DNA of 64,000 bases from an uncultured Acidobacteriota bacterium (GTDB lineage: Bacteria > Acidobacteriota > Vicinamibacteria > Vicinamibacterales > UBA2999). The notes under the pieces are model-generated. The model saw nothing but the letters and a program-made list of their open reading frames with translations. It was not told the DNA's origin and made no database searches. Below, one piece after another: positions 56 to 41,035 of this stretch (positions are counted from its first letter, which is position 1; each line of letters starts with the position of its first letter). Both the position numbers and the translations under genes were made by a program. The stretch lies in the NCBI GenBank assembly GCA_963786365.1, contig CAWAYR010000018.1, forward strand, positions 596,078 to 660,077. The letters run 5' to 3'.

Positions 56-83
56 AGCCGCTAGCCGCTAGCCCCTAGCCGCT
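56..83. repeat. Heptamer tandem array, 4 x AGCC(G/C)CT
   Basis: agccgct-agccgct-agcccct-agccgct read directly, just downstream of the rpsA stop. Confidence 0.85.
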
Positions 84-89
84 GACTCG

Positions 90-1868
90 TTACTTAAGCT
101 TGAAGTGATCGCCCAGCGTCGCCGAGCCGTCGCCCTGCGATGCCGAGTAGCTTTCCCAGTCGGTCCGGATCTCATCGGACTTCATGGCGCGAATGCTCAG
201 GCCGATCTTGCGTTCTGATGGGCTGAGCTTGATGATCTTCATCGGGTAGGTCGTGCCGACCTGCAGGTCGACCTTCTCCCCGCCCTGCGTGTCGTCGAAC
301 TCCGACACGTGGATGAGGCCCTCGATGCCCTCGTCGAGCTCGACGAAGGCGCCGAAGTTGGTCATGCGGACGACCCGGCCCTCGATGTTCTGGCCGACCT
401 TGTGCCGGGAGAAGAAGTCCTCCCAGATGTCGGTCGCCAGCTGCTTGAGGCCGAGCGACAGGCGCTGGTTCTCGGCGTCGATGCTGAGCACCATCGCCTC
501 GACCGTGTCGCCCTTCTTGAGCACCTCGCTCGGGTGCTTGATCCGCTTGCTCCACGACATGTCGGAGATGTGGATCAGGCCGTCGATGTCGTCCTCGACC
601 TCGACGAAGGCGCCGAACTCGGTCAGGTTGCGGACCTTGCCGCTGATCTTGGTACCGACCGGGTACTTGCCGACCAGCTCGTGCCAGGGGTTGCTCTCGA
701 CCTGCTTGAGGCCGAGCGAGATGCGCCGCGCCGACGGGTCGACGCCGAGCACCATCGCTTCGACGTTGTCGCCGACGTTGAGGATCTTCGACGGGTGCTT
801 GACCCGCTTGCTCCACGACATCTCGCTGACGTGGATGAGGCCCTCGACGCCCGGCTCCAGCTCGATGAAGGCGCCGTAGTCGGTCAGGCTGACCGCCTTG
901 CCGCTGACGCGCGCACCGGCCGGATAGCGGTCCATGACCGTGGTCCAGGGGTCGGCGACCAGCTGTTTGTGGCCGAGCGAGACGCGCTCGGTCGCCTGGT
1001 CGTACTTGAGGACCACGACCTCGATGTTCTCGTTGACCTTGAGCACTTCCGACGGATGGCCGACGCGGCCCCACGACATGTCGGTGATGTGCAGCAGGCC
1101 GTCGATGCCGCCCAGGTCGATGAACGCGCCGTAGTCGGTGATGTTCTTGACCACGCCGGTGAGCACCTTGCCCTCCGACAGCGTCTCGAGGGTGTGCTTC
1201 TTCTTCTCGGCGTTCTCCTCTTCGAGGAGGACCTTGCGCGAGAGCACGATGTTGCCGCGCTTCTTGTTGACCTTGATGACGCGCATGCGGAGTTCCTGGC
1301 CGCGCAGCGCGTCGAGGTTGCGCACCGGGCGCACGTCGATCTGGCTGCCGGGGAGGAACGCGCGCACGCCGATGTCGACGGCGAGGCCGCCCTTGATCCG
1401 TTCGATGACCCGGCCGATGACCACCTTGCGCTCGGCGAAGGCCTTCTCGACCTCGTCCCAGATCTTCATCTTCTCGGCTTTTTCCCGAGAGAGGACGATG
1501 TGGCCGTCGCGGTCCTCGGTGCGCTCGAGCAGCACGTCGACGACGTCGCCCGCCTGCACCATCACCGCGCCGGTCTCGTCGAGGAACTCGTTGACCGAGA
1601 TGATGCCCTCGGACTTGTAGCCGACGTCGACCACGACTTCGTTGTCGGTGACCTTCAGGACCGTGCCCTTGACGACCTCGCCTTCCGCGATATTTCGGAA
1701 GCTGTTATCGTAAAGGTCCAAGAGGCGGGAAAATTCCGCCGGGTCCATCTCGTCGTCGAAGCCACCTCGTTGCGGGGTGGCCTTGAGGGTGTGCCGGCCT
1801 GCGGGCTGGGAAGCTCCCGGGGCCGACGCGCCCTGGGGCTCCAGTGCCTGCTCTTCGTGCGTTGCCAT
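90..1868 (-). CDS. rpsA: 30S ribosomal protein S1
   Basis: Six S1 repeats (e.g. VKNITDYGAFIDLGGIDGLLHITDMSW); ATG at 1868 preceded by an AGGAGG RBS. Confidence 0.97.
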   Translation of the reverse strand: MATHEEQALEPQGASAPGASQPAGRHTLKATPQRGGFDDEMDPAEFSRLLDLYDNSFRNIAEGEVVKGTVLKVTDNEVVVDVGYKSEGIISVNEFLDETGAVMVQAGDVVDVLLERTEDRDGHIVLSREKAEKMKIWDEVEKAFAERKVVIGRVIERIKGGLAVDIGVRAFLPGSQIDVRPVRNLDALRGQELRMRVIKVNKKRGNIVLSRKVLLEEENAEKKKHTLETLSEGKVLTGVVKNITDYGAFIDLGGIDGLLHITDMSWGRVGHPSEVLKVNENIEVVVLKYDQATERVSLGHKQLVADPWTTVMDRYPAGARVSGKAVSLTDYGAFIELEPGVEGLIHVSEMSWSKRVKHPSKILNVGDNVEAMVLGVDPSARRISLGLKQVESNPWHELVGKYPVGTKISGKVRNLTEFGAFVEVEDDIDGLIHISDMSWSKRIKHPSEVLKKGDTVEAMVLSIDAENQRLSLGLKQLATDIWEDFFSRHKVGQNIEGRVVRMTNFGAFVELDEGIEGLIHVSEFDDTQGGEKVDLQVGTTYPMKIIKLSPSERKIGLSIRAMKSDEIRTDWESYSASQGDGSATLGDHFKLK

Positions 1869-2031
1869 TGACGTGCGCGTCCTCCTGACGTTCAAATTTG
1901 CCGGTCGGGGTGAGCGGGGGCCGGCGCCCCGCGAGTGTCCGCCGGAGGAGCCCGAGGGTTCCCGTCGGCGTAACCAACAGAATTTACGTCAGTTACAGTT
2001 CCGGTGTCAAGGAATCCCGAGGGGACGCGCC

Positions 2032-38200: not shown

Positions 38201-38516
38201 CGCCGCCCGCGCGGTCTCGGTGACCGTCACCCGCACGCCTTCCTGCAGTCGCGACGCGGAACCCGGCCAGCGTGGCCTTGACGTTGTAGACGCCCGGCTG
38301 CAGCAGCGGCAGCGTGTAGAGGCCGTCGTCGCCGCTGACCGCCGAGCGCACGGCGCCGGTGGCGGTGTTGGTCGCCTCGACGGTCACGCCCGGCAGCACG
38401 GCGCCCGACGTGTCGGTGACGCTGCCGGTGATCTGGCCGGTGGCCTGCGCCCACACCGCGACCGGCGCCGCGAGCAGCAGGGCCAGCATGAAACCGAGTC
38501 TCGTCATCAATCGCAT
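35265..38516 (-). CDS. TonB-dependent receptor with N-terminal carboxypeptidase regulatory-like domain (Oar-like; many frameshifts)
   Basis: [54 protein letters not shown]. Confidence 0.9.
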
Positions 38517-38662
38517 GGCGGCACCTCCGCAACGACGTCGGTCTGCAAAGTGAACCCCGCGGATGTGCCGCTTGTCAACGACGCGCCGGTGACGCGACCG
38601 TGGCATGCGGCCGATGCCGGCGCGAGATGCATCGTCGCGGTCGCGATACACTACCCGGCGCA

Positions 38663-40886
38663 ATGGCGCGGCGGCGGTGGCTGGCAGGCGTAGCGGGCAT
38701 GCTCGTGGGTGGCACGCTGTCGCTGTCGGCCCAGGACGCGCACCGTCACCGCCCCCGACGGCCGGCGCGCCCTGACCGCCGTCCGCGTCACGACGCCGGT
38801 CACGGTCGACGGTGTCCTCGACGAGGAGGTCTGGCGCACGGCGCCGCCCGCCGACCGGTTCGTGCAAAGCGATCCGCTCGAGGGCGAGCCGGCCACCGAG
38901 ACGACCGAGGTGCGCGTCGCCTTCGACGACGACTACCTCTACATCGGCGGCGCTCTGCCACGACAGCGACCCGGCCCACATCGTCGTCAACGACATCCGC
39001 AAGGACTTCGCCGGGGCCGAGCAGGACATCTTCGAGGTGCTGCTCGACACCTTCGCGGACCGGCGCAACGGGTTCGTCTTCGCCACCAACGCCGCCGGTG
39101 CCCGCGCCGACACCCAGATCGCCAACGAGGGCCGCGACGTGAACCCGAACTGGGACGCGGTGTGGTGGGTCGCCGGCCGCATCACGCCGGACGGGTGGAC
39201 GGCCGAGTTCCGCATCCCCTTCAAGACCCTGCGGTTCCAGCCCGGCGACGGCCACGACTGGGGCCTCAACTTCGCGCGCCGGATCCGGCGGAAGAACGAA
39301 GTGACCTACTGGTCCCCGGTGTCGCGCGCGTTCTCGATCGTGCGGGCGTCGTCGGCCGGGACGCTGACCGGCCTGCCCGACCTGGCCCAGGGCCGCAACA
39401 TCCGCGTCAAGCCGTTCGTGCTCGGTGACACGGTGCGGCCGCTCGGCGGCGACAGCTTCTCGGTCGACCGGCAGCGCCGGGGTCGACGTCAAGGCCGGGT
39501 TGACGCCGTCGCTGACCCTCGACGCCACCGTCAATCCCGACTTCGCCCAGGCCGAGGCCGACGAACAGCAGGTCAACCTCACGCAGTTCAGTCTGTTCTT
39601 CCCCGAGAAGCGCGAGTTCTTCCTGGAGAACTCCGGCATCTTCTACTTCGGCGACATCCCGCGCAATCAGCGTCAGACCAGTCGCTTCCGTCCGCCCGAG
39701 GAGGACCTGCTGCTGTTCTTCAGCCGCCGCATCGGGTTGACCGACGACGGCGAGCAGGTGCCGCTCTACGGCGGCCTCCGCCTCACCGGCCGCGCCGGCG
39801 GTGTCGGCCTCGGCGCCCTCAGCATGCAGAGCGAGGCGCACGACGGCGCGCCGGCCAGAACTACTCCGTCGCCCGCGTCCGCCGCGACGTCTTCGGCTCC
39901 TCGGACATCGGCGCCATCGTCATGTCGCGGCAGGCGGCCGGCGAGCAGCGGCGACTTCAACCGCGTCGTCGGCGCCGACGCCAACTTCCGGGTCCTGAAG
40001 AGCCTCAGCCTCAACGGCTTCGCCGCCCGGTCCGACACCCCCGACGAAGACCGCGGAGCAGACGGCGTCGAAGGCCGCGGATCGGCTGGGAGGACAGCCG
40101 GCTGCGCACCGCAGTATTCGATCATGAACGTCGGCGAGGGCTTCCGCGCCGACATGGGCTTCGTGCGTCGCACCGGGGTCACCCGGCACTTCGTCGACTG
40201 GGCGTCGTTCCTGCAGTCCGAGGCGCTGCAGCGGCACGGCATCCGCCAGCTCGAGCCGCACGCGCGCGCCTGGATCTATGTCGATCCGCACGGCGATCTG
40301 GCGACACGCGAAGGGCACGTCGCGCTCCAGGTGACGTGGACGCGCGGCACCTACCTCGAGTACGCGTTCGAGCCGCGCGCCGAGGCGATCACCTCGCCCT
40401 TCCGGATCCGCCCCGACGTGGTGATCCCGACCGGCCGCTACGACTGGACCCAGCACCTGTGGGTGTTCCAGAGCGATCGCAGCCGCGCCTTCTCGGTCGC
40501 CAGCCGCGTCACCCACGGCGGCTTCTGGAGCGGCTCACAGAAGAACGTGCAGACCAGCGTGCTCTACCGCCCGAACTACCGGCTGTTCGTCGACGTCGGC
40601 CTGCAGGTGACCGACATCGACCTGAGCGAACCCGACGCCTCGTTCGTGACCACGCTGGTCAACTGGCGCACCGGCTACTCGTTCACGACCAACATGTTCC
40701 TCGACGCGCTGGTGCAGTATCGCAGCGACATCGAGCAGTTCTCGGCCAACCTGCGCTTCAACCTGATCCACCGCCCGCTCAGCGACTTCTTCGTCGTCTA
40801 CAACGAGCAGCAGTACACCGACGGCGGCGCCGATCGCCGCCGGGCGCGGCGTGGTGGTGAAGTACACGCACCTGTTCTCCTTCTAG
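38663..40886 (+). CDS. DUF5916 / CBM9-like domain outer-membrane protein (frameshifted)
   Basis: VDGVLDEEVW, GWTAEFRIPFKTLRF, TVNPDFAQAEAD, FFPEKREFFLE, FFSRRIG. Confidence 0.85.
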
Positions 40887-41035
40887 GGGCTAGGGACTAG
40901 GGGCTAGGGGCTAGGACGCGCTATCGGCACGGTTCGCAGCGCTCACGCTCGTGCAGCGCGATGCCCTGCTCGAGGGTTGGTCAATGCAGCGCGACGCATG
41001 CACGCGCCAGCCCCTAGCCCCCAGTCCCTAGCCCC
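40884..41035. repeat. Inverted heptamer arrays (TAGGG(G/A)C x4-5 and AG(C/T)CCC(T/C) x4) flanking a spacer of about 93 bp between convergent genes
   Basis: Arms at 40884-40915 and 41009-41035 read directly. Confidence 0.88.

Follow-up and report, generated by a model that had tools for sequence, protein, structure and literature searches.

We find that a 64,000-nucleotide stretch of DNA from an uncultured bacterium of the Vicinamibacterales (Acidobacteriota), referred to here as the window (G000:C18:596078-660077; 70-72% GC), carries several members of a dispersed family of tandem heptamer arrays that populates the whole genome. A typical element consists of about four G-rich heptamers, a loop and about four complementary C-rich heptamers, and some elements are single-armed. 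The outer end of an arm abuts the boundary of an open reading frame (ORF), mostly its stop codon, and related genomes keep the sites while changing the unit. We read these elements as slippage-prone palindromic repeats at gene boundaries whose transcripts would form boundary hairpins, and put the probability of this reading at about one half. Its parts differ in strength: the anatomy and the kinship to the short tandemly repeated repetitive (STRR) class of dispersed heptamer repeats are very probably right, and an RNA boundary-hairpin function as the reason why the elements persist is a tentative proposal, to which we give somewhat less than even odds.

A dispersed family of heptamer arrays with a preferred copy number

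The source genome (G000) is a 5.55 Mb draft in 33 contigs with 70% GC, 80% completeness and 0.8% contamination. Arrays in the window were called with Tandem Repeats Finder (TRF) and by inspection of the raw sequence, and the family was defined across the genome as chains of at least three units of the form C-S-C-N-R-D-N, with genomes simulated by Markov models of order 1, 3 and 5 as the chance control. This filter returns 217 arrays (6.7 kb) from the genome and 3, 11 and 10 from the respective simulations; period-7 arrays with a score of at least 40 number 194, against 4, 4 and 5 simulated, and those with a score of at least 50 number 88, against 0, 1 and 0. Among periods that are not multiples of 3, period 7 dominates the genome. 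The original prediction, made from the letters of the window, was of a dispersed repeat family with a unit close to AGCCCCT/AGTCCCG, to be checked by a genome-wide scan for period-7 arrays. The family is borne out, at a frequency far above that of the simulated genomes (217 arrays against 3-11), and the heptamer character of its unit stands; the unit itself is broader than proposed, approximating N-C-S-C-N-R-R on the C-rich strand, with AGCCGCT, GGTCCCT, AGCCCCG, GGTCCCC and AGCCCCT as common forms and at least five unit types side by side in this one genome.

Copy number is sharply peaked, with 4.x copies in 128 of the 194 arrays. A role as all-frame stop signals was considered and rejected, as stops in all three frames occur in only 45 of the 217 family arrays. 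The window holds 8-9 family arrays, and seven of those called by TRF pass the family filter. Searches of Rfam at gathering thresholds give tRNA as the sole match.

Arms are matched to their own partners

The G-rich arm comes first on either strand: among 44 neighbouring array pairs separated by at most 600 nt, 35 run from G-rich to C-rich, 4 from C-rich to G-rich, 4 are C-C and 1 is G-G. In the 34 array pairs less than 200 nt apart the loop measures 16-138 nt, and both arms of one element are built from the same unit type. The duplex formed by an element's own arms averages -58.3 kcal/mol over these 34 pairs, compared with -41.6 kcal/mol with the arms of other elements, a value that 0 of 10000 permutations reach. 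Four elements of the window form arm-on-arm stems of -54 to -89 kcal/mol with z-scores between -3.95 and -6.14, and 0 of 200 shuffles are as stable. Partners also hide beside arrays scored as single, of which there are 149: a strong complement is found on the expected side of 44 of the 147 tested and on the other side of 10 of 147, so that about half of all arrays lie in palindromes.

The loops share no single conserved sequence, although short motifs are common to 25 of 34, and a loop often carries a GTCACGC-type motif or a GC hairpin. One word, GTCACGCTGTCAC, is present in nine copies in the genome (0-1 in the simulations), eight of the nine within 120 nt of an array. The inner loop motif is itself an 8-nt tandem repeat (GTCACGCT and variants) of up to four copies, as seen in the loops at C7:243473-243593, in the C18:662665 region and at window positions 5-15; a further copy lies at 26769-26778, just upstream of a tRNA-Thr gene.

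Arrays sit behind stop codons

Gene calls in G000 were made with a model of codon and dicodon usage, by which 72-74% of the sequence is coding. Called genes cover 72% of the genome, and 144 of the 217 arrays lie wholly outside them. The 5' flank of the G-rich strand of single arrays is a gene end in 90 cases, a gene start in 42, non-coding DNA in 16 and a contig edge in 1 (n = 149). Among singles, stop codon and array are -7 to +14 nt apart in 63 of the 90 whose G-rich strand reads in the gene's sense, and in only 8 of the 32 whose C-rich strand does; among flanks of pairs that face a stop codon, 26 of 38 lie within -9 to +11 nt of it. Paired elements occupy 18 tandem, 7 convergent and 1 divergent spacer (26 classified, with 8 more unclassified), in a genome whose spacers are 68% tandem, 14% convergent and 18% divergent, and the depletion of pairs between divergent genes gives a one-sided binomial p of 0.037 by count and 0.0097 by bases. 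Arrays had been predicted to begin at or just after stop codons and to be enriched at gene 3' ends, and both expectations agree with this strong positional bias, in which pairs fall in tandem or convergent spacers and only 1 of 26 in a divergent one.

Canonical hairpin-plus-T terminators number 320 in the genome and 261-277 in simulated genomes, barely above chance, in a scan that was not applied to the long arm-to-arm stems; the scarcity of hairpin-plus-U-tract terminators noted for the window thus extends to the genome. No T run following a second arm was seen in the sequences inspected by eye.

At the other end of some elements, a -10-like box (TAGAAT, TACACT) comes after several C-rich arms, 6-7 nt before an ATG lacking a ribosome-binding site (G000 C12:107856-107870, C4:168242-168254 and C24:215781-215797), which suggests leaderless transcripts that start right after the element. 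Other C-rich arms end 2-6 nt ahead of a start codon, ihfB being one example.

Sites are kept and units are changed among relatives

The comparison of orthologous loci that had been proposed as a check reveals abundant polymorphism among relatives. Across the order, 109 loci of relatives (713 kb) contain 113 period-7 arrays with a score of at least 40, with at least one array in 63 of the 109, and the same loci hold 16, 11, 10 and 12 arrays of periods 8, 10, 11 and 13. The units are very diverse and often not G-rich, AAGAATC, GCTGATT, GATTTCG and AATTAAG among them. Most of the 38 rpsA-ihfB spacers viewed, from 80 loci of relatives, carry an inverted heptamer pair built from a unit of their own, and some hold only a plain GC hairpin. 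Of the 80 spacers, 77 were extracted, with a few borders mis-set by stop codons within arrays; folds reach z < -2 in 44 of 70 and z < -3 in 30 of 70, and 32 of 70 contain a 28-nt window with at least 16 of 21 period-7 matches, a measure without a control.

Five same-genus relatives (G001-G005), with flanking DNA about 85% identical to that of G000, permit a closer comparison. At nine anchored orthologous sites, a set that excludes 4928-4956 because its right-hand anchor is unmatched in all five genomes, 36 of 39 pairings of site and genome show an array to the eye, mostly one built from a different unit type, and the loop sequences differ too. Counts of three-unit words, taken from overlapping windows so that long arrays weigh more, show which unit prevails in each genome: AGCCCCG scores 361 in G003 and 15-33 elsewhere; CCCTGTT scores 268 in G004 and 1-17 elsewhere; AGCCGCT scores 228 in G002, 70 in G000, 77 in G005 and 27-32 in G003 and G004; CCCCAGC scores 79 in G005 and 0-16 elsewhere; and CCCTGGT scores 103 in G003 and 6-38 elsewhere. 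The control words counted beside AGCCCCG and CCCTGGT are rotations of the same repeat and uninformative as a control. G000 itself is a mixture (70, 33 and 31 three-unit words). Among 121 genomes of the order, the AGCCGCT three-unit word is found in seven, with more than ten matches only in the two genomes of the window's genus. All 21 sequencing runs listed in a search for RNA data share 0.05-0.06 of words with the query; the four examined yield contig pieces of 120-500 nt from relatives, 90-99% identical over conserved genes, in which neither an end nor the bridging of an element was seen.

A loop motif beside an arm in G004 matches the loops of G000 elements at other loci, so that arm type and inner motif travel together. 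Some arms in G003 and G004 contain 12-15 perfect units opposite a four-unit arm, and one G004 arm has units of an older type outside and the dominant type inside. The label 'recombinogenic' offered by the original prediction agrees with the way species-specific units replace one another at conserved sites. Since the sites are conserved and the unit changes, what is kept is the period of 7, the copy number of about four, the polarity, the complementarity of the arms and the place beside ORF boundaries; G tracts and any particular sequence are not kept.

Arrays in two of these genomes are also asymmetric between strands. CCCTGTT words in G004 number 225 forward and 43 reverse, and the matches listed on contig 1 of that genome are all forward from 0.39 to 2.0 Mb and on both strands beyond 3.1 Mb; in G003 the reverse orientation prevails as far as about 1.33 Mb, and every array from 1.35 Mb on is forward. 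The bias is carried by the long perfect arm, and looks like a replication-strand effect.

Elements of the window

TRF calls period-7 arrays at 56-83, 4928-4956, 9875-9927, 9993-10018, 13203-13230, 40883-40915 and 41009-41035. The array sites originally listed in the window are real; the site at 2884-3025 is degenerate, and 56-83 is one arm of a pair that reaches outside the window. That arm (minus strand) is C-rich on the plus strand and G-rich in the sense of rpsA, and lies 7 nt after the rpsA stop codon (90-92); its partner falls outside the window, 11-44 nt ahead of its first position, and stops 6 nt short of the ihfB start codon. The whole rpsA-ihfB element (L111:330-463(-)) folds with -66.3 kcal/mol (z -3.95). 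The neighbouring rpsA gene (90-1868, minus strand), which encodes ribosomal protein S1 and has its stop codon against this array, is at most 97% identical to proteins of Vicinamibacterales and Acidobacteriota metagenome-assembled genomes. A 261-nt repeat at 437-987 inside it presumably corresponds to its repeated S1 domains.

The degenerate pair at 2884-3025 lies between a convergent DUF6335 gene, with its stop codon at 2874-2876 on the plus strand, and cmk, with its minus-strand stop codon (3017-3019) within the last unit. Only 3001-3017 scores, and the fold is weaker (z -1.85, with 8 of 200 shuffles as stable); same-genus relatives have clean pairs at this site. Repeats of 15 and 27 nt at 2091-2391 encode an Ala- and Lys-rich N-terminal region of the DUF6335 protein. 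At 4928-4956 (plus strand) a single G-rich array of four units stands 9 nt after the TAG (4917-4919) of a small plus-strand ORF, with no partner arm detected.

Two of the remaining pairs lie at gene ends. The short-loop pair at 13159-13231 (minus strand) joins a G-rich arm recognized by eye (13159-13199) to an arm at 13203-13230 and folds with -53.9 kcal/mol (z -6.14); it begins 4 nt after the stop codon (13235-13237) of a minus-strand gene, about 80 nt upstream of a Ku gene (12177-13076). The pair at 40883-41035 lies between convergent genes, with a G-rich arm (40883-40915), a 91-nt loop and a C-rich arm (41007-41035), and folds with -88.7 kcal/mol (z -4.98). Its G-rich arm takes in the final five codons of a DUF5916 gene together with the stop (40898-40900), its C-rich arm lies 32 nt before the stop (41068-41070) of a minus-strand DCC1-like gene, and the same site in the relative G004 has a 13-unit arm.

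Two single arrays complete the set. The array at 35229-35268 (minus strand), scored as period 8 because one unit has 8 nt, is G-rich in the sense of an outer-membrane barrel gene whose TAG stop (35265-35267) falls within the last unit. The weak trace reported at 57818-57845 (plus strand) proves to be a decayed single G-rich array between the stop (57811-57813) of a rhodanese-domain gene and the start (57851) of a DUF6116 gene.

Apart from the arrays, the last 36 nt of the tRNA-Thr (CGT) gene at 26780-26852 are repeated exactly and in tandem behind it (26816-26887, 2.0 copies, 100% match); TCCA comes after the second copy, and the next 5 kb are lower in GC (0.67). This tail duplication may be a scar left by integration or excision, or else an artefact of assembly.

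In-frame elements in uvrC and dnaE2

The pair at 9874-10018 (minus strand), with arms at 9874-9935 and 9986-10018 and a fold of -80.3 kcal/mol (z -4.09), does not lie at a gene end: it sits in frame inside uvrC (9361-11304, minus strand; 647 aa). The product thereby gains about 47 residues between its conserved EYRKYRV and DDFAAM motifs, and uvrC products of relatives without arrays have 602-625 aa. Across relatives the uvrC loop measures 66-204 nt and is always in frame (in the 22 of 30 loci where it could be extracted by pattern), and TRF flags arrays at this loop in 9 of 29 loci.

The second case is the dnaE2 locus L131 (G000:C12:394047-398158), where nine arrays crowd into 5 kb, more densely than anywhere else in the genome (0.2 per 5 kb on average). 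The best NCBIfam match of this gene is 'error-prone DNA polymerase', and Pfam recognizes Pol III alpha domains. The reading frame contains four element sites that the genus has in common. Length differences at these sites are multiples of three among the better assemblies (G002, G003 and G004). At site 2, G004 and G005 lack an element (36 nt) and G000 and G003 have one (149-162 nt), and the loop at site 3 encodes a conserved peptide containing CPKCGC. The arrays add disordered loops to both uvrC and dnaE2.

Array lengths in dnaE2 of G000 differ by one base from those of the sister genomes, at two sites, in what looks like an assembly error. The outer-membrane gene of the window (35258-39269, minus strand) and the dnaE2 gene on C12 are each split over several frames, which suggests indel errors in G/C runs of the assembly and not true pseudogenes; the arrays, being homopolymer-rich, can break genes in long-read assemblies.

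Just upstream of dnaE2 lies a 23S_rRNA_IVP four-helix-bundle gene that is bracketed by arrays in all genomes of the genus. As a general partner of the arrays it was rejected, with a single copy in G000, between imuB-like DNA and dnaE2. Eight further ORFs are candidates for spanning arrays, six of which were run through Pfam; two were rejected on the positions of their domains, L133 having its array between genes fused in frame and L134 having it ahead of the only domain.

Proposed boundary hairpins and the alternatives

The reading that we favour has a DNA and an RNA level. At the DNA level the elements would be microsatellite-like palindromes in which replication slippage changes copy number, copying from arm to arm within a palindrome keeps the arms alike, and a unit spreads through the genome by exchange among loci or by repeated replacement; they would be retained wherever an ORF tolerates, or benefits from, a stable hairpin immediately after it. 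At the RNA level, a transcript would meet the G-rich arm first and fold a stem of 25-30 bp behind the stop codon. Such a stem may act as a transcript-boundary hairpin, through protection of the 3' end, through termination or insulation without a U-tract, or as a site of double-strand processing.

Several observations weigh against this reading. About 100 arrays stand alone, without a detectable partner, and in uvrC of G005 and G001 the arms are non-complementary or one arm is absent. A terminator in the in-frame elements of uvrC and dnaE2 would be harmful, and 4 of 34 loops hold a hairpin-plus-T terminator of their own, with which transcription would stop before the second arm is made; a role in termination or at RNA 3' ends, as originally suggested, is weakened by the uvrC element and by these loops. 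With 217 arrays for about 5000 genes, a few percent at most, the elements are not a general terminator. The long perfect arrays and strand asymmetry of G003 and G004 point to a replication-level process rather than selection. Finally, the counts of array context in G000 are approximate, owing to crude gene calls and apparent assembly indels.

Another account, which we regard as unlikely though it deserves the most weight among the alternatives, is that the arrays are a pure mutational by-product or selfish DNA with no function of their own, arising by slippage and template switching around small pre-existing hairpins, spreading by ectopic conversion and surviving only where harmless, at gene 3' ends and in tolerant protein loops. 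It would accommodate the perfect expansions to 12-15 units in relatives, the in-frame low-complexity peptides in uvrC and dnaE2, the presence or absence of an element at dnaE2 site 2 (36 nt when empty, 149-162 nt when filled), the plain hairpins found in the rpsA-ihfB spacer of other genomes, the appearance of native palindromic words in loops and a total of only about 217 arrays per genome. The strand or replichore-like asymmetry also fits, as array orientation differs between the two largest contigs of G000 (7:20 and 19:10, Fisher p 0.004); no significant link of orientation to local GC skew is found in this genome (Fisher p 0.39). Free slippage would be expected to leave a broad spread of copy numbers, unlike the sharp mode at four copies (128 of 194), and a by-product does not readily explain the strict polarity, the asymmetric abutment to stop codons (63 of 90 against 8 of 32) or the persistence of sites across families of the order.

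Folding of four G tracts into a quadruplex, in DNA or RNA beside ORFs where it would modulate expression, is improbable as the basis of the family. On the G-rich strand, 143 of 217 arrays do have four runs of at least three G, and the preference for four units is shared with the repeats for which quadruplexes have been proposed, as described in the accessible part of PMC4692102. The other 74 arrays lack four G3 tracts and cannot form one, however, and the commonest unit, AGCGGCT as read on the G-rich strand, has no G3 tract and the same mode at four copies (37 of 54). Relatives use AAGAATC, GCTGATT, GATTTCG and AATTAAG at the same kinds of sites, and complementary arms would compete with quadruplex folding. 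That sites are kept while the unit changes argues against a quadruplex, or any sequence-specific explanation, as the common principle, and the former is unlikely in that role.

Mobility was part of the original prediction, with target-site duplications and a co-occurring transposase as its expected traces, and it finds no support in either. We consider it quite implausible that the arrays are terminal inverted repeats of transposable elements of the miniature inverted-repeat kind (MITEs), or of elements like the repetitive extragenic palindromic (REP) sequences, moved by a Y1 'RAYT' transposase. The inverted-pair architecture with shared sub-terminal motifs, the occurrence of the same element type at non-orthologous loci of sister species and the Y1 transposase genes in 5 of 5 same-genus relatives searched would all suit such elements. 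The outer flanks of the 34 pairs do not: the longest word that they share averages 3.44 nt, compared with 3.56 +/- 0.15 for shuffled flanks, in a test that could miss short duplications as array borders are fuzzy. PF01797 (Y1) has no match in G000 at its 80% completeness; in relatives, 5 of 6 Y1 loci scanned for tandem repeats have no period-7 family array close to the gene, and a scan for inverted repeats places classical palindromes such as GGGGTCAGACCCC on the flanks of the gene at 4 of 5 loci. Between four distant matching arm pairs lie eight ORFs, seven of housekeeping families and one without a family, none of them a transposase, and the sites are conserved rather than scattered. G000 also has REP-like palindromes (GGTGCCWGGCACC in 35 copies, GGGGCCWGGCCCC in 22 and GGGGTCTGACCCC in 9), none within 150 nt of a heptamer array, and a 14-nt palindromic tandem repeat flanks a Y1 gene in G001 (Y1 loci L155-L160).

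It is similarly a long shot that the unit is set in trans and rewritten genome-wide by a factor peculiar to each species, whether an RNA template or a system of sequence-directed copying or conversion. Under its action, upwards of 100 fixed sites at gene boundaries would all carry one heptamer, and all of them would follow when the factor changes, which would explain shared sites with a dominant unit for each species (361, 268, 228 and 79 words), newer units innermost in an arm and runs of 12-15 perfect copies. Manufacture of the arrays in a telomerase-like manner, by a conserved reverse transcriptase of the RVT_1 family, was rejected, since PF00078, the one polymerase family searched for, is present in only 1 of 5 genomes of the genus.

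Most doubtful are binding arrays for a translation or nucleoid protein (S1, cold-shock or CsrA-like), with one heptamer as one binding unit, an idea proposed for TAACTGA repeats in the available part of PMC4679880 and in keeping with arrays that abut ORF boundaries, which are defined only by translation, and with C-rich arms that end 2-17 nt before starts lacking an obvious ribosome-binding site, but hard to square with the coexistence of unrelated units and with dominant units that differ between sisters, along with which a specific binder must change.

Relation to known repeats

A 1990 study reportedly described dispersed heptamer repeats of the STRR class in cyanobacteria. In the portion of Rehm et al. 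2015 (PMC4692102) available, the G-rich heptamers are GGGAATC in Xanthomonas and, in Nostoc, GGGGA(C/T)T of the STRR class; these repeats are dispersed, over-represented outside genes and under-represented between divergent ORFs, Xanthomonas has 70-75 inverted pairs, and sister species have them beside the same genes with varying length and sequence. Quadruplexes are proposed there and the function is left open, and a 2007 survey is cited for a general excess of heptamer repeats in bacteria. The analogy with STRR repeats, drawn when the window was first read, is apt, as the excerpt describes the same architecture: our arrays resemble those of Xanthomonas and Nostoc in their dispersed heptamers, in the preference for four units, in the 5' end of the G-rich strand abutting an ORF boundary and in the avoidance of divergent spacers. 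They differ in belonging to another phylum, in having at least five units per genome, the commonest of which has no quadruplex capacity, in dominant units that change between sister species and across the order are not even G-rich, and in the in-frame copies inside uvrC and dnaE2. Of the traits of the class, dispersed 7-nt units, about four units per array and placement at ORF boundaries are all found here, and quadruplex G tracts in every unit are not, being absent from 74 of 217 arrays; the missing G3 tracts lower the standing of the quadruplex reading and not that of the kinship in architecture.

The TAACTGA direct repeats of Beggiatoaceae, cyanobacteria and Bacteroidetes, according to the available part of MacGregor 2015 (PMC4679880), are intergenic, in 2-6 copies near starts. 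They resemble our family as intergenic heptamer arrays of scattered phyletic distribution whose mechanism is open. As described in that part, nearly all of them are direct repeats, they are placed upstream of starts, and different phyla share one unit, whereas here the units are lineage-specific, inverted pairs predominate and most arrays follow stops. Other heptamers occur near recF and recO of Nostoc, and their role is only speculated upon in the accessible part of the report (bioRxiv 10.1101/2022.06.06.494920).

Intrinsic terminators share with our elements a GC-rich hairpin right behind the stop codon, here with the G-rich arm first, and at an orthologous site in some relatives a plain GC hairpin takes the place of the element. 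They differ in that our elements show no U-tract behind the second arm in the sequences viewed, and have 25-30 bp in the stem and loops of 16-138 nt. Extragenic inverted pairs at gene 3' ends that fold into hairpins, reach hundreds of copies and have family-specific sequence are known as REP, BIME and REPIN elements, with their RAYT transposases. Our elements are like them in their 3'-end inverted pairs, hairpins and hundreds of copies, and unlike REP and REPIN elements in that their arms are tandem arrays rather than a single imperfect palindrome of 20-40 nt, and in showing no association with Y1 transposases of the genus. In-frame insertion into genes is known for Rickettsia palindromic elements and other MITEs. 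Palindromic repeats in frame in conserved genes that add a peptide loop, as in uvrC and dnaE2, resemble the Rickettsia elements; the absence of a flanking duplication, the same codon position occupied by different units across lineages and the mostly intergenic location set our family apart.

No report of heptamer repeats in Acidobacteriota appears among the literature matches listed, a coverage that leaves out most subscription journals. The element family described here is an addition from a new phylum to the known, unexplained repeats of STRR type. Dispersed heptamer repeats, recognized in cyanobacteria and, since 2015, in Xanthomonas, are still without an accepted function, and a whole order of soil Acidobacteriota that carries such arrays provides a sharper comparative handle on two questions: what homogenises the units genome-wide, and whether the hairpin marks transcript ends.

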